A stretch of DNA of 6,100 bases from Erysipelotrichaceae bacterium MTC7. Lineage in GTDB: Bacteria > Bacillota_I > Bacilli_A > Erysipelotrichales > Erysipelotrichaceae. Below the pieces are notes generated by a model. It was given only the letters and a program-made list of their open reading frames with translations. It was not told the DNA's origin and searched no databases. Each line of letters begins with the position of its first letter. Within the stretch, counting starts at the first letter, position 1. A program made the translations under genes and the position numbers. The stretch covers positions 1-6,100 of the forward strand of contig LVZN01000030.1 of assembly GCA_001695645.1 (NCBI GenBank), written 5' to 3'. Below, one piece after another: positions 1 to 6,100 of this stretch.

Positions 1-20
1 AGTTTAACATATACAATTAA

Positions 21-70
21 AAAAACTGTGAAGCAGAGCCGTACGCTCTCTACTTACACAGTTTATTTTA
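21..70. terminator. Imperfect hairpin flanked by an A-run and a T-run; candidate bidirectional Rho-independent terminator
   Basis: Stem pairs 23-33 with 53-64 and 35-39 with 45-49 (AGAGC/GCTCT), loop CGTAC, with one bulge and one internal mismatch. AAAAAA precedes it and TTTATTTTA follows on the + strand, so either strand reads hairpin then U-run. It lies about 230 nt downstream of the ABC ATPase stop. It could equally terminate a + strand gene left of the window. Confidence 0.45.
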
Positions 71-295
71 CACTCCCGTATTACTCGGTTATTCGAGTAC
101 GCTCTGTTGCATTCATTATATTGCGTATAAAAGGACAATAAATATTGTGGTTTTCGACTTTTTTCTTTAAGTTTACCCACAGTCCATGATATTATCGTTT
201 TTTTTAAAAACCATATAGTAAGAGGTATTAACTTAATTTTAATCCAATTTTCTTGATTATCTCTTGTTACTTTAACTCATTTTGTGTGATTGTTA

Positions 296-925
296 TCATT
301 TGTTTTTCAAAACAATTTTTTCATCAGAAATTTTTGAAAAGACCAAGTCATGAGTGGCAATAATTATAGTCTTTCCTTCATCGCGTAGTTGCTTAAAAAT
401 ACTAATGACTACTTCTGCATTTTTTTCATCCAAATTCCCTGTTGGTTCATCAGCTAAGATAATATCACTTTCCTTGAGAAGTGCTCTAGCTAAGGCAACA
501 CGTTGTTGCTCACCTCCGGACAATGTATAAATCATTTTATCTAGGTAATTTGACAAGCCCACACGTTCTAAAACTTGATTCATCTTCTCTGTTTTGTTTT
601 TACTATTATCATATGCTAAAGCAATCTCCAAATTATACTTGACGCTCCTATTGTCAACCAAAGCATAGTTTTGAAATAAGTACGCGATTCTTTTTCTAAA
701 AAGCATAGTCTTACTACTAGTATCAACAACGCTATCTTTATAATATATAACCTCTCCAGAAGATGGTTTATCAATACCCCCTATTAAATTTAGTAATGTA
801 CTTTTTCCACTTCCAGAAACTCCATATAAAACATAGATTTTTCCTTTTTTAAATCTATAAGAAAAATCTTTTAGTACCTGATTCTCTCCAAAGGACTTAG
901 TTATATCTTTACATTCGACAACCAT
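296..925 (-). CDS. ABC transporter ATP-binding protein (MacB/LolD/FtsE-like NBD, lactococcin-972-group type)
   Basis: 209-aa ORF with Walker A GVSGSGKST, Q-loop LFQNYAL, ABC signature LSGGEQQR, Walker B IILADEPT and H-loop ATHD. It has no TM segment. Its ATG sits 2 nt after the permease stop (TAAAGATG) with an AAAGGA Shine-Dalgarno 8 nt upstream, so it is probably translationally coupled. Confidence 0.95.
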   Translation of the reverse strand: MVVECKDITKSFGENQVLKDFSYRFKKGKIYVLYGVSGSGKSTLLNLIGGIDKPSSGEVIYYKDSVVDTSSKTMLFRKRIAYLFQNYALVDNRSVKYNLEIALAYDNSKNKTEKMNQVLERVGLSNYLDKMIYTLSGGEQQRVALARALLKESDIILADEPTGNLDEKNAEVVISIFKQLRDEGKTIIIATHDLVFSKISDEKIVLKNK

Positions 926-927
926 CT

Positions 928-2931
928 TTAATTTCCTTTCAACACAATAGCAATTGATTTGCTTTCAAGTCTATATACAACTATGCTAGTAAATAAAATA
1001 TCTATAAATAAAATTATTAGCAGTATAACAAAAGTATTAATTTGATAGTTTAGAATAATTAGTAAAATGAAATTCACCACATATGAACAAATTAACAATA
1101 GAATTAAATCGACATATCTTGAGATAAAAGAGTATCCGTGCATTTTCTTTACAATATATTCTTTTCGATTCACTTCAAACATTAGAAATAAGTACTGAAT
1201 AATAAGTAAAACTAGCAACGAAATATATAGCAATATCATTGTTGCTTCATATATGAGAGTTGATAATTGTAAATTAAGTACAAAAGAACCTTCTTCTTTG
1301 GCTAGTGAATAAACAAATTCATTTTCAATTCCATACTCATACAGCATTTTTTGTGCGTTCTCATAATTTGGATCACTATTTTTCTTAAAATATAGGTCAC
1401 CCCATGTGAAGTCATCACTCACTAAGATTGGTGTTTGCTGGATATATCCCAGTTTATCCTCATCATAATTAATATTAAAGGTGAAAAGTTTTTGGTCGTC
1501 TTTAATTATAATTTCTTCAAATTCCAAAAAGTCCTTTAATCTTTCTACTCGCTTTTTGTACAACATTGGATCATTCACATATTCTTCTGGTATCAGCAAA
1601 TATTTCTTGCTTTCGTCTAGATCAACCACTTGTTGATTATTCATGTCATAAATTTTATATTTCTTCAAATAATTATAATTCACATCTACCCAAGCATAAC
1701 TTAGGTTCAAGCTATTATCATAATTACCTAAATAAATACCAATGTACTGTTCATTTTTTTGAACATCCTTAGCAAACTCGTAGATTCGCTCATTCCCCTC
1801 TTGATTTAAGAAACCCTGAATTTCTGTACTATGCGTATAGTCAGAACATTCTTCATTAAATTCATTATATTGAGTAGCAACTTTAATCGTATTTACAAAT
1901 CCAGGTAAGGAATCAAATAGTGATATTGTTAATAGAAAAACAAAAACAACTCTCATAATCGTGTTTACATTGAGGATGAACTTAGATATTCCTTTTTTCT
2001 TTAACAATATACTTATTCCAATTGATTTGATATACAGTAAAGCTATGCAATATACAATAGCAATTACAATGTATTTGCATGCAACAGCAATTATAATGTT
2101 TTGAAACATTGGAATATGAATATCGCTGAGTTTGGGTATATATATCACTGTCATAACTGCCACAACGACAACATCAAGAATGACCATCATAATTGAAGTA
2201 ACTAACAAACTATCCTTCACTATCCTAAAGTTACTATATCCATTCATTTTCTTTATCGAAATATCTTTAGTTTCATTTGAAAAAACAAGTAAAAGAATAA
2301 CGAGTGAACTACAACTTAAAATCAGCCCAAATTTGATCATTTTCTCATAATTTGGGTTTCTCTCCGTTGCAACTTCGTGATCCAAGTCTTCTTCATAGGT
2401 TTCAATGATTTCAATTTGATTTGGAAAATGATTTTGAAATTCATTGTAAAACTGTTCACGATTTTCACCAAAAACAAAATACCAACCATCTAATCGCGTA
2501 TTCAACTCATTATAAAATGAACGTTTAGTTAGTTCTATGGTATTGTCAAATGTATTAATTTCCCCAACTGTCGCTATTTGTTCATTACTGGATAAAACTG
2601 CGTATTTATCAAAGTTAAAATTCGAATCTATATTATATCTTTCTAGTAATTCCTTGTTGTTCAGTGCAATGAACTGATTAACTTTATTTTCGGTACTTCC
2701 ATTATTTGTTACAACACTAACATTATGTTTTTCTGCAAGTTTAACAATAAAGGTAGCATCATCATTTGTGTAAGTCTGTCCTTCATGCTCATAGACCATA
2801 AATTCTAAACTTGAACCTAGTCTAGTATTCACACTTTCTTCGTGAATAAATTTTTCTCTTGCGTCAGTGTGAATATAGAGAAAGCAGAATATCATAAATA
2901 TTCCGCTTAACATAAGTAAGATCTTTTTCAT
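928..2931 (-). CDS. Bacteriocin-associated integral membrane protein / ABC permease with two FtsX-like modules (DUF1430-type, putative immunity transporter subunit)
   Basis: Long uninterrupted ORF. Residue numbers use the 671-aa track ORF, which starts at TTG 2943. I prefer ATG 2931 (MKKILL...) because GGGGA lies 5 nt upstream. About 8 hydrophobic helices: aa 7-25, 202-222, 245-268, 283-305, 328-348, 563-590, 613-633 and 637-657. Two large hydrophilic domains: aa ~26-200 and ~350-560. A post-TM motif occurs twice: ETKDISIKKMNGYSNFRI at aa 224-241 and NRKEYIVKKMHGYSFISR at aa 592-609. It resembles the conserved FtsX/MacB segment after TM2. The gene sits between the peptide gene and the ATPase gene. 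Confidence 0.9.
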   Translation of the reverse strand: MKKILLMLSGIFMIFCFLYIHTDAREKFIHEESVNTRLGSSLEFMVYEHEGQTYTNDDATFIVKLAEKHNVSVVTNNGSTENKVNQFIALNNKELLERYNIDSNFNFDKYAVLSSNEQIATVGEINTFDNTIELTKRSFYNELNTRLDGWYFVFGENREQFYNEFQNHFPNQIEIIETYEEDLDHEVATERNPNYEKMIKFGLILSCSSLVILLLVFSNETKDISIKKMNGYSNFRIVKDSLLVTSIMMVILDVVVVAVMTVIYIPKLSDIHIPMFQNIIIAVACKYIVIAIVYCIALLYIKSIGISILLKKKGISKFILNVNTIMRVVFVFLLTISLFDSLPGFVNTIKVATQYNEFNEECSDYTHSTEIQGFLNQEGNERIYEFAKDVQKNEQYIGIYLGNYDNSLNLSYAWVDVNYNYLKKYKIYDMNNQQVVDLDESKKYLLIPEEYVNDPMLYKKRVERLKDFLEFEEIIIKDDQKLFTFNINYDEDKLGYIQQTPILVSDDFTWGDLYFKKNSDPNYENAQKMLYEYGIENEFVYSLAKEEGSFVLNLQLSTLIYEATMILLYISLLVLLIIQYLFLMFEVNRKEYIVKKMHGYSFISRYVDLILLLICSYVVNFILLIILNYQINTFVILLIILFIDILFTSIVVYRLESKSIAIVLKGN

Positions 2932-2947
2932 ATGTTTCCCCAATTAA

Positions 2948-3250
2948 CTACTTTCTTGTATGAACATGATTATATCGATTTGTATATAAACTTACTCTAG
3001 CTGTAGTACCAGGGCCTTTGGTTTGTGTATGTCCTGCTCCACCGGCATAATGATATATTCCTGCAGTTGCATTTGCGTATCTTTGATTATGCTCTGTTAT
3101 TGCGGTACAATTTGAACCACTTGGATTTTCATCAGCATACCGATACATCATATATGAATCTGAGTAGTATGCATTTGATGCTAGCACCACTGTTGGAATA
3201 CACATAAATGCCAATAAAACTAAAATAATACAGTATTTCAATTTCTTCAT
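2948..3250 (-). CDS. Small secreted peptide precursor; candidate Sec-dependent (class IId / lactococcin-972-like by context) bacteriocin
   Basis: ATG at 3250 is preceded by AGGAGG (3256-3261) with a 5-nt spacer. The longer track start at 3283 has no Shine-Dalgarno. The 100-aa product begins MKKLKY, then a hydrophobic core CIILVLLAFMCIPTVV, then VLA|SNA, a typical signal peptidase I site. The predicted 76-aa mature peptide is Tyr-rich (10 Y) and His-rich (5 H), has a single Cys and is net basic. It is the first gene of the operon. The permease ATG at 2931 lies 16 nt past the peptide stop codon (2948-2950). Confidence 0.8.
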   Translation of the reverse strand: MKKLKYCIILVLLAFMCIPTVVLASNAYYSDSYMMYRYADENPSGSNCTAITEHNQRYANATAGIYHYAGGAGHTQTKGPGTTARVSLYTNRYNHVHTRK

Positions 3251-3302
3251 AATTACCTCCTTTTCTAATAAGTAAAACGCCATAATAATATTCTTGATAT
3301 GT

Positions 3303-3314
3303 TAGAGTACTCTA
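3303..3314. promoter_or_regulatory. Perfect 12-bp palindrome TAGAGTACTCTA between the -10 box and the RBS; candidate operator
   Basis: Read directly: TAGAGT/ACTCTA with no mismatch. It starts 9 nt downstream of the predicted -10 hexamer, so it covers the expected transcription start region of the peptide operon. Confidence 0.3.
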
Positions 3315-3322
3315 TTATTATT

Positions 3323-3350
3323 AATATATCATAATAAGATATTTCGTCAA
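3323..3350 (-). promoter_or_regulatory. Sigma-A type promoter of the peptide-permease-ATPase operon
   Basis: On the minus strand: TTGACG (3350-3345), a 16-nt spacer, then TGATATATT, an extended -10 with TG at 3331-3330 and TATATT at 3328-3323. An A/T-rich UP-like tract lies upstream. It is about 70 nt upstream of the peptide ATG. Confidence 0.5.
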
Positions 3351-3602
3351 ATTTATATAATAATATTTTGTAATTTTTCGGTAAACCTAAAGTGAATATT
3401 TTCTCAAAAAAGTCGATTGCTATAACTTTATGATTTTCGAAATAATCTTTTGGTTCAAGTGCTCTCGAAAATATAGATGGTTTTCTCAAAACCTCGAATC
3501 ATGGATATTTACTAGATAATATTGCTCGATTATAACGAATGCAATCTGCTGCATTTTTTGTATATAGAGTTTGAAAGGATAGTAAAATAAAAGCAGCTTT
3601 TT

Positions 3603-3641
3603 CTTAATGTGTAGGTGTGGTATTACTATAACTTAATGTGT
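3603..3641 (+). repeat. Two copies of CTTAATGTGT spaced 29 bp apart, just upstream of the istB remnant
   Basis: Exact 10-mers at 3603-3612 and 3632-3641. They could be subterminal transposase-binding repeats or a rearrangement junction. A 10-mer repeat in AT-rich DNA is only weakly significant. Confidence 0.2.
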
Positions 3642-3668
3642 GTGCACCCTTTTTTTATTAGAAACTAG

Positions 3669-4334
3669 TCCACTCATCATGCCCCGGGACTTTTCTCTAC
3701 TCTATGCTTAGCATTGGAAGCATTAGAACAAATAATTGATTCTCTTTATCATTCGAGGAAGCATAAAACTATAAATCGTCTAAAAAAGAATTCAAGGAAT
3801 TCTCAAAAGAATGCTAATATATTGGATATTGATTATCTTCCTGATCGCAATATAAATAAATGCATTGTAGAACAACTACTAACGAATGATTATATACTTA
3901 AGCATCGTAATGTCAATTTTTTGTGCTTGTGGTATAGATAAAGAGTTTATAGTAAATGCATTAAGTAATCATGTTTGTGATAACTCACATTCAACATTCT
4001 ATTGTAGGATATTTGGATTCAATGATGAATGCAATCAAGAAAAAATCTAACTAACTACCACTGTTAGTGAAGCGCTCAAAAAATATGTAAAGTATTAAGG
4101 ATTAATCATTGATAATTTTTAATTAACGAGTTAATAAATAAGCAAGTGAATTATTTATTTCAACTTCATAAATAACGATATGAAACAAAGTCGACTATTA
4201 TATGCTCACAACTTGAACCCAAAGAATGGCATTCTCGAAGAGGAGATAACATATTGGCGGATTCTATTCTCAATAGAATTACTCCAAATGCATATGAAAT
4301 TATCCTTAATGGGTAATCCATGAGAAATAACTAA
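3669..4334 (+). pseudogene. istB: IS21-family helper ATPase IstB, decayed (frameshifts, in-frame stops, ruined Walker A)
   Basis: Three stretches read like IstB. The first is 3714-3938: INRLKKNS...DIDYLPDRNINKCIVEQLLTNDYILKHRNVNFL. The second is in the +1 frame at 3931-4125: GIDKEFIVNALSNHVCDNSHSTFYCRIF...KKYVKY*GLIIDNF. GIDKE sits where Walker A GxGKS/T should be, and LIIDNF sits at Walker B. The third returns to the first frame at 4149-4334: LFQLHK*RYETKSTIICSQLEPKEWHSRRGDNILADSILNRITPNAYEIILNG*SMRNN*. This matches the IstB C-terminal pattern of RYE, S-IITSN, EW, AxAILDR and GxSxR. There are at least 2 frameshifts and at least 4 in-frame stops. Confidence 0.7.
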
Positions 4335-4373
4335 AACAACAGTTATCATCATAAAGGTGGCGACTGTTGTTTT
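4333..4373. repeat. 11-bp perfect inverted repeat with a 19-nt loop immediately after the istB remnant
   Basis: AAAACAACAGT (4333-4343) and ACTGTTGTTTT (4363-4373). The right arm runs into TTTTATT, so it may be a weak terminator. The loop is long for an intrinsic terminator. Confidence 0.3.
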
Positions 4374-4624
4374 ATTACTATAATTGGCACAGTTTATCCC
4401 AACGAAAGTGGTCCACTTTTAAATTACAATAAACAGCAATTTAAGTGGCTTAAATTATAGCGACGTGGATGGCTCAAAACGAACGATGTATTCATAATGC
4501 AAATGGCTTTAGAAACTTTGAGTGAGCTCGTAATAAAATCATGTATTCACTAAATAAGCATAAGCATGATTCCCTAAGTGAGTACAAGACAAAGAAGAAA
4601 AAGAGTAAAACAAAGAAAGCAACG

Positions 4625-4656
4625 AAAAAATAGACTCCAGATTTAGCTGAAGTCTA
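4625..4656 (-). terminator. Rho-independent terminator candidate for minus-strand transcription
   Basis: TAGACTCCAG (4631-4640) and CTGAAGTCTA (4647-4656) with a 6-nt loop. The single + strand C/A mismatch becomes a G-U pair in minus-strand RNA. That gives a 10-bp stem followed by UUUUUU (complement of A-run 4625-4630). It is about 200 nt downstream of the transposase stop. Confidence 0.4.
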
Positions 4657-4722
4657 TTGACTGAACTGATGGCTTTAAACTAAGGGGCTGTGACAGATAG
4701 ACATATTTAGCCGAATCTGGAG
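4635..4722. repeat. Long-range imperfect inverted repeat (17 positions per arm) enclosing about 54 nt
   Basis: 4635-4651 pairs with 4706-4722. The core is a 9-bp perfect match, CTCCAGATT/AATCTGGAG. The extension reaches 14 Watson-Crick pairs plus 2 G-U pairs and 1 mismatch. It overlaps the arms of both neighbouring hairpins. Confidence 0.5.
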
Positions 4723-4738
4723 CACAGCTCCTTTTTTT
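4719..4738 (+). terminator. Rho-independent terminator candidate for plus-strand transcription
   Basis: GGAGC (4719-4723), loop ACA, GCTCC (4727-4731), then TTTTTTT (4732-4738). The stem is short but all five of its base pairs are Watson-Crick, four of them G-C. Confidence 0.45.
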
Positions 4739-4765
4739 CTTGATTTGTTCCATTTATTGCTCGTT

Positions 4766-4791
4766 TTTTAATAATGTGTCCATTATTAAAA
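4766..4791. repeat. AT-rich 11-bp perfect inverted repeat, TTTTAATAATG tgtc CATTATTAAAA
   Basis: Read directly. It lies about 70 nt beyond the 3' end of the transposase gene, in the zone where the IS1182-family element should end. Its function is unknown. Confidence 0.3.
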
Positions 4792-4858
4792 GCCCATTCT
4801 CATTTCAGGCTGATTTTTGATTCGCTTTTGCATTAACTCTATAATCTAATGTGGAAAA

Positions 4859-6100
4859 CTATGACAGTATAATCTTGTCTTTTGGTTTTCCATGTTTTTT
4901 ATTGTGGTATTTACGTAGATTGAAGCCAATTCCTACAAGCTTCATTTCTACCTCTACACCGCTTTCTCCTCGCCTTTGTAAACGCGTGTATTTGAAGTTC
5001 TCTTTAATATCCGCAAACGTTCCTTCCGCTTGTGAACTTCGATTACTTAGTAATTGCTTTCCACGACTGGTTTCCAGTAGTTCATCAATACGTTTCTTTT
5101 CTTTTTCCAATGCTGGTGTTACTTGTGCTGTACGCCCTTTCGTGGCTCTTGTACATCTGTTTCTTACTGGACATACCGCACAATTGGAATTGCGATAATA
5201 TATGGTAATCTTCGGTGTTAATCCAATGTATTGTACACTAGTTCTCTCTATATCAAATGCATGTCCTTGTGGACATATTGGTGTTCCGACAGCTGTTCTT
5301 TCAAAATGCACTAAGTGATATCGATTCTTATCATTTACTTTTTTCTTCTTTGCTTCAAATCCACTATATTTCAGAACCGCTTCAATACTATTTCGCTTGC
5401 AGAACTCATAATTATCATAACCACCATATCCTGCGTCTCCGACAACGGCATTAGGATAGTCATGATACTGTTTTTTAAATTCATTTAAAAATGGCTGTAA
5501 CGTTTTGATGTCATTTGGATCTGCACTTATATACATATGTGCGATGTATCCATCAACGATACCAGCTTGCACATTGTATCCAGGTTTGAAGACATTCGTG
5601 TGGTTATAATAATCGTACTTCATATGCATAAATATTGCATCTGCATCTGTCTTTGAAAAACTATTGCGATTGCCTAACACATCAGTAGCCATCGTATATT
5701 GCCACATTTTAATTGCACTTTTCTTAAGTTCATCAACTAGTTTTGCAAGTTCGTGCTTTCCACGTCTTCTACGGATAAACTTCTTTTCAGCAATATATTT
5801 TTCTATTCGTTCGTCAATCTCAATCAAATATTCTATGCTTGGTTCTTTAATAATCGAATACTTGATATTGATTTCGTTCTTTTTAAAATATGTATTGATC
5901 TGTCTAATGATTTCAATGCACTTTTTCCAGTGGCGAGGCTGATATCTTTTTTGCCATGCACGCCAAAAGAATGTCATTTTATTTGCATTAGCTTCAAACT
6001 TCGTTCCATCTATATATAGAATATTTTCTTCTAATGCTTCTTTGTCTTGTATGTATAAATATACTTGCTTAAACAACTCATCAATTGAGCACTTAAGTAT
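4859..6100 (-). CDS. IS1182-family DDE transposase, N-terminus outside the window
   Basis: The reading frame stays open to the window edge. The codons upstream of the track start read ILKCSIDE-LFKQ with no stop. Family motifs read by eye include YIDGTKFEANANK, SKTDADAIFMHMK...KPGYNVQ and GDAGYGGYDNYE. Others are the Cys cluster CAVCPVRNRC and the C-terminal NRSSQAEGTFADIKENFKYTRLQRRG...NLRKYHNK. There are no internal stops across 413 codons. Confidence 0.9.
   Translation of the reverse strand: MLKCSIDELFKQVYLYIQDKEALEENILYIDGTKFEANANKMTFFWRAWQKRYQPRHWKKCIEIIRQINTYFKKNEINIKYSIIKEPSIEYLIEIDERIEKYIAEKKFIRRRRGKHELAKLVDELKKSAIKMWQYTMATDVLGNRNSFSKTDADAIFMHMKYDYYNHTNVFKPGYNVQAGIVDGYIAHMYISADPNDIKTLQPFLNEFKKQYHDYPNAVVGDAGYGGYDNYEFCKRNSIEAVLKYSGFEAKKKKVNDKNRYHLVHFERTAVGTPICPQGHAFDIERTSVQYIGLTPKITIYYRNSNCAVCPVRNRCTRATKGRTAQVTPALEKEKKRIDELLETSRGKQLLSNRSSQAEGTFADIKENFKYTRLQRRGESGVEVEMKLVGIGFNLRKYHNKKHGKPKDKIILS
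4859..6100 (-). mobile_element. IS1182-family insertion sequence (partial in window; termini not determined)
   Basis: Inferred from the transposase gene. The near end must lie between about 4740 and 4858. I could not identify it without the other end for comparison. Confidence 0.6.

Follow-up and report, generated by a model that had tools for sequence, protein, structure and literature searches.

What does the first gene of a lactococcin 972 (Lcn972)-type bacteriocin cassette encode when its product does not look like Lcn972? This question is raised by a stretch of 6,100 nucleotides from Erysipelotrichaceae bacterium MTC7 (contig LVZN01000030.1, positions 1 to 6,100), referred to here as the window, in which a minus-strand open reading frame (ORF; 3250..2948, stop codon included) encodes a 100-amino acid precursor on record as a hypothetical protein of this bacterium. 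Among unmodified bacteriocins, binding to lipid II is known only for the Lcn972 family, and the cassette consisting of a toxin gene, a DUF1430 protein gene and an ATP-binding cassette (ABC) ATPase gene is used to recognize its relatives. The window has the same cassette with a first-gene product that no current model recognizes, and for this reason genome mining based on family hidden Markov models (HMMs) would miss the peptide. We propose that it is probably the structural peptide in an Lcn972-type bacteriocin cassette of three genes and that it comes from a different, so far undescribed sequence family.

Organization of the Cassette

The peptide gene is followed on the minus strand by the gene for a polytopic membrane protein of 667 amino acids (928..2931), the presumed permease and immunity component, and by the gene for an ABC ATPase of 209 amino acids (296..925). 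The conserved start of the membrane protein is the ATG at 2931; the ORF as listed runs on to a TTG at 2943. The membrane protein matched DUF1430 (PF07242) with 40.7 bits (cut-off 28.2) and TIGR01654, "bacteriocin-associated integral membrane protein", over residues 54–670 with an E value of 9e-29 and 100.5 bits, which is under the curated cut-off of 189 bits. The membrane protein of a genuine Enterococcus faecalis Lcn972 cassette (L009) is likewise under this cut-off (118.6 bits), and that of the cassette encoding a 70%-identical relative of Lcn972 (L005) reached 476.4 bits. The ATPase is of the Lcn972-cassette type (TIGR03608, "L_ocin_972_ABC"), with 255.5 bits and a cut-off of 254.85; the corresponding scores were 254.5 bits for L005 and 285.3 bits for L009. 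By these scores, the accessory genes of the window resemble the Lcn972 type as closely as those of some real cassettes do.

The order peptide–DUF1430 protein (~670 amino acids)–ABC ATPase, with spacers of 4–17 nucleotides and all genes on one strand, was found in the window and in the related loci L001, L002/L004 and L003, and the same order was found in L011–13 as far as these contigs reach, so that no related locus with sufficient flank departs from it. Genuine Lcn972-family loci have the same layout, as seen in L005, in E. faecalis (L009/L010) and in plasmids annotated "lactococcin 972 family bacteriocin" (L015–17). The features of this cassette type, a TIGR03608 ATPase, a polytopic protein of ~650–720 amino acids with DUF1430 as its C-terminal domain and a tight gene order on one strand, are all present in the window, and its second and third genes are homologous to the Lcn972 orf2/orf3 module (TIGR01654 "bact_immun_7tm" plus TIGR03608), with the same order and spacing. 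The initial annotation of this DNA had entertained a functional analogy with Lcn972 and had not used these two genes; they strongly suggest it. Loci of the Bacillus type are laid out otherwise: in Bacillus paralicheniformis (L007/L008, 5001–9724) the Lcn972-family peptide gene is followed by ~1 kb, an ABC ATPase gene, small ORFs and the gene for a 657-amino acid protein with no Pfam match, and there is no called DUF1430 protein.

The three genes were compared across nine cassettes. The ATPase of the window shares 44–47% identity with its counterparts in five genuine Lcn972 cassettes, while the ATPase of the prototype-like L005 is only 38–44% identical to those of the other four. The membrane protein is ~22% identical over ~700 amino acids to the membrane proteins of genuine cassettes; BLASTP against L016 gave 22% over 701 amino acids (E value 1e-9), and against L009 only the part from residue 206 onward aligned significantly, leaving the first large loop (residues 23–198) unmatched there. 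The genuine pair L005 and L016 shows 21% identity in this protein (E value 8e-12). For the peptides, BLASTP E values between the window and the genuine cassettes were at least 0.06, whereas those of the genuine peptides with each other ranged from 1e-3 to 1e-20. Judged from these alignments, at equal accessory-gene divergence the genuine Lcn972 peptides recognize each other and the window peptide recognizes none of them.

A hidden Lcn972 gene elsewhere in these loci was ruled out. An unfiltered six-frame hmmsearch of the window and the related loci gave E values of at least 5 for Lcn972-like ORFs, with controls at 1e-21 to 1e-30. Because there was no Lcn972-like ORF in any frame, the window peptide is the only candidate product. 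In the reciprocal search the HMM of the new peptide family retrieved its own members only, and from these reciprocal null results it follows that the two peptide families are mutually exclusive in the same slot. By its genes the system belongs to the Lcn972 cassette type and appears to work like one, while its peptide lacks every testable sequence feature of the Lcn972 family.

The Peptide Precursor

The precursor consists of the signal peptide MKKLKYCIILVLLAFMCIPTVVLA followed by the mature part SNAYYSDSYMMYRYADENPSGSNCTAITEHNQRYANATAGIYHYAGGAGHTQTKGPGTTARVSLYTNRYNHVHTRK. The Sec-type signal peptide of 24 amino acids (3179..3250, minus strand) has three Lys residues in its n-region, then a hydrophobic core and V-L-A as the cleavage motif. 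All five full-length members of the family kept the basic n-region, the hydrophobic core and a motif of the form [VA]-x-A, with Ala at -1, Val or Ala at -3 and [ST]-N after the predicted cut. Cleavage between VLA and SNA would leave a Tyr/His-rich mature peptide of 76 amino acids (2951..3178, minus strand) with a mass of 8485 Da, a pI of 9.1 and a grand average of hydropathy of -1.03; the values for Lcn972 are 7381 Da, 9.7 and -0.98. With its Sec signal peptide and the small, basic, unmodified mature protein predicted from it, the precursor shares a trait of Lcn972.

A recount of the mature part was identical to the composition given in the initial annotation (10 Tyr, 5 His, 1 Cys, 7 Arg/Lys and 4 Asp/Glu); Trp and Phe are absent. 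Two further statements of that annotation, that there is no double-glycine leader and that the Cys residues are too few for a lanthipeptide, were also borne out: the leader is of the Sec type, the mature peptide has one Cys, and no Lan enzymes, other modification enzymes or genes dedicated to export were found in the window. The features of double-glycine class II bacteriocins and lanthipeptides are missing from the window in the transporter as well, the sole ABC component being the 209-amino acid ATPase, which has no peptidase domain. A lipoprotein, with the Cys of LAFMC as the critical residue, was considered and rejected; this Cys is not conserved, as it is absent in the family members P0003 and P0005, and a lipobox would require a different residue at -1.

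A strong Shine-Dalgarno sequence, AAAGGAGGT (3255..3263, minus strand), was read 5 nucleotides ahead of the ATG at 3250. The stop codon TAA (2948..2950, minus strand) is followed by a 16-nucleotide spacer containing GGGGAA before the next gene. A candidate sigma-70 promoter (3323..3350, minus strand), composed of TTGACG, 16 nucleotides and a TG-extended TATATT, is located ~70 nucleotides upstream of the start codon. It counts as weak evidence: promoter-like sites are no more numerous in this AT-rich window than expected from shuffled sequence, and related loci show no conservation of the upstream DNA.

Relationship of the Peptide to Lcn972

The initial annotation had observed that the peptide does not look like Lcn972, and the sequence searches agreed. 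None of the six members of the peptide family had a match in Pfam (E values up to 10) or to the NCBIfam Lcn972 models (E values up to 1), and PDB sequence and profile searches with the peptide returned only noise. A PF09683 match was present in the fetched Lcn972 relatives, a few short fragments excepted. BLASTP of the peptide against mature Lcn972, in a sequence identical to that of PDB 2LGN, gave an E value of 5.1.

The profile-profile comparison that the initial annotation had proposed did not connect the peptide with the Lactococcin_972 family. The Lcn972 alignment comprised 31 diverse PF09683 proteins of the lactococcal, enterococcal and Bacillus/Paenibacillus types, to which three plasmid-encoded sequences were later added (34). 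Comparison of the six mature sequences with these 31–34 members in hhalign gave probabilities of 0.3–0.7% and P values of 0.085–0.21; the lowest P value (0.085, probability below 1%) was obtained against the enterococcal subgroup. The three Lcn972 subfamilies compared with each other reached 93–99% (P values of 3e-7 to 3e-20), even with six sequences a side, and single divergent Lcn972 members gave P values of 8e-4 to 3e-14. The test has power, since these positive controls connect divergent Lcn972 subfamilies.

The invariant columns of the 31-sequence alignment (W29, G32, S40, Y42, H49, V53 and A74) have no collinear counterpart in the window peptide, which has no Trp. The Lcn972 signature, made up of W-x-[YH]-G, S-x-Y-x-H-x(4)-H-x-[AS]-x-V and an Ala near the C-terminal strands, is absent from it. 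Like the members of the Lcn972 family (PF09683/TIGR01653; mediterrocin, Sil and Lmo2776), the peptide is predicted to be Sec-dependent and unmodified, in the range of 7–9 kDa, basic (pI above 9) and hydrophilic, and it is encoded by the first gene before a DUF1430 protein and a TIGR03608-type ATPase. It differs from them in having no Trp or Phe, one conserved Cys and invariant motifs of its own, and in showing no detectable sequence or profile similarity to them.

Two apparent likenesses were examined and rejected. A circular permutation, in which the C-terminal N-R-Y-x-H-x-H would correspond to S-N-Y-H-H of Lcn972, gave a null result with tandem-duplicated profiles in hhalign. The by-eye likeness of RYANATAG to RYSNAYVG and VWAKATVG (9HKJ and Lcn972) was at the hhalign noise level, with 7–15 columns and P values of 0.12–0.21, and the lowest P value mentioned above came from another segment.

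These comparisons bear on the alternative that the peptide is truly homologous to Lcn972 but has diverged so far that the sequence signal is erased, with the same beta-sandwich and probably the same lipid II-directed mechanism. Such a homologue would depart from the reading that we prefer in ancestry and fold only, not in function. The accessory genes are orthologous in kind, the peptide resembles Lcn972 in size, charge, hydrophilicity and Sec export, and small beta-rich secreted toxins evolve fast; the Lcn972 family itself tolerates ~18% identity, as in mediterrocin (PMC12345188). However, the one short likeness found by eye is indistinguishable from noise, the permuted profiles add nothing, the Lcn972 invariant columns lack counterparts, and the BLASTP values stay far from those reached by genuine peptides at the same accessory-gene divergence. 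We consider a diverged homologue unlikely.

The initial annotation had left two choices, a very divergent member or a new family. The HMM, profile-profile and pairwise results, all of them null, decided for a new family at the level of sequence only. The reference fold of Lcn972 (2LGN) is a beta-sandwich of two three-stranded sheets, and the initial annotation had suggested a small beta-sandwich of this kind as a possible fold of the peptide. Beta versus alpha periodicity of the hydrophobic moment did not discriminate, as the Lcn972 control itself had no beta signal.

Conservation and Selection

Homologues of the peptide were found in Breznakia blatticola DSM 28867 (L004), whose mature part is 84% identical, and in several metagenome or SRA assemblies (L001, L003 and L011–13), whose mature parts are 53–72% identical. 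Ratios of nonsynonymous to synonymous substitution rates (dN/dS), calculated by the Nei-Gojobori method, were 0.11 for the window and Breznakia and 0.26 for the window and L003. At larger distances dN/dS was 0.14–0.19 in the mature part versus 0.56–0.58 in the signal peptide. These ratios indicate that the mature part is more constrained than the signal peptide, as is typical of functional secreted proteins. The reading frame, the signal peptide and the synteny were kept in five independent loci, and a profile of the family recovered all members with E values of 1e-33 to 1e-43.

The gene is real and under purifying selection. Its record as merely a "hypothetical protein" and the lack of a family match are what a chance or misannotated ORF with no product would show, an explanation that the conservation refutes: the strong Shine-Dalgarno sequence, the dN/dS values of 0.11–0.26, the synteny and the profile recovery leave it a negligible probability.

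Thirteen positions are invariant in all six members (Y5, D7, S8, M10, R33, G47, Q52, A60, S63, N67, Y69, H71 and H73). The family has the C-terminal motif N-R-Y-x-H-x-H and a second motif of its own, Y-x-D-S-[YWF]-M, and an N-C pair is common to five of the six members. That the single Cys mediates a covalent dimer, or that the C-terminal H-x-H binds a metal, is speculation.

The family is very small. A profile search run exhaustively on 1.84 billion representatives (~15 billion proteins clustered at 50%) added no more than two clusters, P0005 and P0007, and a spurious repeat protein (P0006), so that the family amounts to three 50%-identity clusters. Among the 185,579 species-representative genomes of GTDB only Breznakia blatticola has a member, and none was found in the JGI metagenomes (two scans), IMG/VR or PLSDB. 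Erysipelotrichaceae are the only named hosts. The literature search returned no description of this peptide family, nor of bacteriocins in Breznakia or MTC7. The rarity of the family means that breadth of conservation is not available as support.

In L014 (950–1281) the cassette is present as a decayed copy. Its peptide ORF (P0007) has no signal peptide and is followed immediately, in frame, by a fragment corresponding to residues 576–613 of the membrane protein (61% identity, E value 3e-11). As the fragment begins at residue 576, ~575 codons have been deleted. Such a joint loss would be expected if toxin and immunity genes decay as one unit.

Proposed Function

In the mechanism that we propose, the 100-amino acid precursor would be exported through the general Sec pathway and cut by signal peptidase I after VLA, giving an unmodified, cationic, Tyr/His-rich protein of 8.5 kDa. 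The released protein would act on related Gram-positive bacteria from outside, at their envelope. The co-transcribed DUF1430 protein and MacB/FtsE-like ATPase would form a transporter that protects the producer and would not be needed for export. The toxin slot would have been filled by an unrelated gene, or its occupant would have diverged too far to be recognized, while the immunity module remained recognizable.

An immunity role of orf2-orf3 has been proposed for Lcn972 (PMC4055356), and the mediterrocin cluster includes DUF1430 and ABC proteins with a proposed immunity role, together with Sec-dependent export (PMC12345188). By analogy with these systems we infer that the window peptide is secreted and antimicrobial, that the downstream genes confer immunity and that the target lies in the envelope. 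Lipid II binding and inhibition of septum formation are known for Lcn972 only, according to the passages of PMC4055356 and PMC9964109 that cite them; that lipid II might also be the target of the new peptide is conjecture.

Several points weigh against a bacteriocin cassette. The assignment is one of guilt by association with one cassette type, and the immunity function of DUF1430/ABC proteins is itself only "putative" in the literature. The TIGR01654 score of the membrane protein is under the curated cut-off, and the peptide family is extremely rare. The AlphaFold2 models of the peptide were unusable, with a predicted local distance difference test score (pLDDT) of 41.8 from a 4-sequence alignment and of 37.2 from a 6-sequence alignment. 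We regard the family as probably a rare, undescribed bacteriocin family, put forward as a candidate by association only. Its principle would not surprise specialists, since members that accompany uncharacterized putative bacteriocins are already part of the TIGR01654 description.

The peptide might instead be a secreted or surface protein with no antimicrobial function, for example a signaling or adhesion peptide, or else an extracellular partner, a ligand or a sensor-modulating factor for the DUF1430/ABC transporter, in which case the transporter would serve in housekeeping or general resistance. Extracytoplasmic partners are common for ABC systems of the MacB/FtsEX type, and the C-terminal H-x-H and the single Cys could indicate binding of a metal or a partner. 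Some DUF1430/TIGR01654 proteins are found with no recognized bacteriocin. Nonetheless, the cassette is patchy in its distribution, lies in unrelated neighborhoods beside mobile elements and decays as a unit, which suits an accessory competition locus and not a housekeeping one, and the first gene encodes the toxin in every characterized cassette of this layout, namely those of Lcn972 and mediterrocin (PMC4055356, PMC12345188). A non-antimicrobial role is accordingly judged quite improbable.

A bolder form of the bacteriocin reading is that the peptide founds a structurally new Sec-exported antibacterial family that displaced Lcn972 in its own cassette, the DUF1430/ABC pair being a toxin-agnostic or target-centered immunity device. 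We hold this idea tentatively and are inclined to doubt it. If it is true, DUF1430/TIGR03608 pairs could serve as bait for further unrecognized bacteriocins that target the envelope, in little-studied Firmicutes such as Erysipelotrichaceae.

If the peptide is active, it would represent a new scaffold of envelope-directed, Sec-exported antimicrobial protein from Erysipelotrichaceae of insect and animal guts. The cassette is also a test case for how DUF1430/ABC proteins protect the producer, by recognition of the toxin or by guarding of the target. If the peptide is inactive, DUF1430/ABC modules would be unreliable markers of bacteriocin loci.

Architecture of the Proposed Transporter

By hydropathy, the membrane protein has eight hydrophobic segments and two large loops (residues 23–198 and 347–564). 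An internal duplication was observed in it; each copy contains a transmembrane helix, the motif KKM[NH]GYS (residues 227–233 and 595–601) and two more transmembrane helices. A loop of ~175 or 220 amino acids precedes each copy, an arrangement reminiscent of FtsX/BceB-type permeases. Pfam FtsX did not match the membrane protein at E values up to 1, and no PDB sequence matched it. After TIGR03608, the next-best families for the ATPase were FtsE, DarD, MacB, LolD and DevA.

The transporter architecture may be described as MacB/BceAB-like. The window resembles the BceAB/MacB-type (type VII) ABC transporters, which confer resistance to cell-wall-active peptides, in its ATPase family matches and in a membrane partner that likewise has large extracytoplasmic loops and an internally duplicated unit of transmembrane segments and motif. 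It differs from them in that its membrane protein has neither a Pfam FtsX nor a PDB match, and the resemblance is therefore one of predicted architecture and not of membership.

Translation Starts and Flanking DNA

Variations were seen by eye at the start of the peptide gene in related loci. Upstream of it in Breznakia blatticola (L004, ~2650–2699) there is an apparent ORF of 14 codons, MIQKQSSQVSYKKL, with its own AAAGGAGA. The TGA of this ORF overlaps the ATG of the peptide gene (ATGA), an arrangement that could provide translational coupling. The window has no ORF of this type and has instead the strong Shine-Dalgarno sequence directly before the peptide ATG. In L001 (~270–305) and L011 (~2390–2425), GGAGG is found 5 nucleotides before an in-frame TTG located 9–10 codons upstream of the conserved MKK start, and the precursors of both loci may start earlier, with a longer n-region.

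Just upstream of the peptide gene, the window has a 74-amino acid ORF with a TTG start (3265–3489, minus strand). It has no Pfam match and lies in a region that is not conserved, and it is probably not a gene. A 75-amino acid ORF at 3714–3941 (plus strand) has a weak IstB_IS21 match (E value 0.009, below the cut-off) and may be a remnant of an IS21 helper gene. Positions 3500–4850 are otherwise devoid of a convincing gene, and with the IstB-like remnant this indicates that the cassette is flanked by mobile-element debris. Searches of the window against Rfam found nothing, and its repeats look like chance.

A DDE transposase of the IS1182 family is encoded at 4859–6076 (minus strand; PF13751, E value 3e-28; NF033551, 208 bits, under the 270-bit cut-off). 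It covers only positions 121–486 of the model, the N-terminus being missing or beyond the contig end, and it probably explains the assembly break at this place. Because the flanks differ, mobile elements are common and the upstream DNA is not conserved, the three-gene unit can be seen as a conserved, mobile module. In L011 (512–1685) and L012 (585–1758), apparently fragmented ORFs for a group II intron reverse transcriptase/maturase (RVT_1, GIIM) lie immediately ahead of the cassette copy that has P0005.

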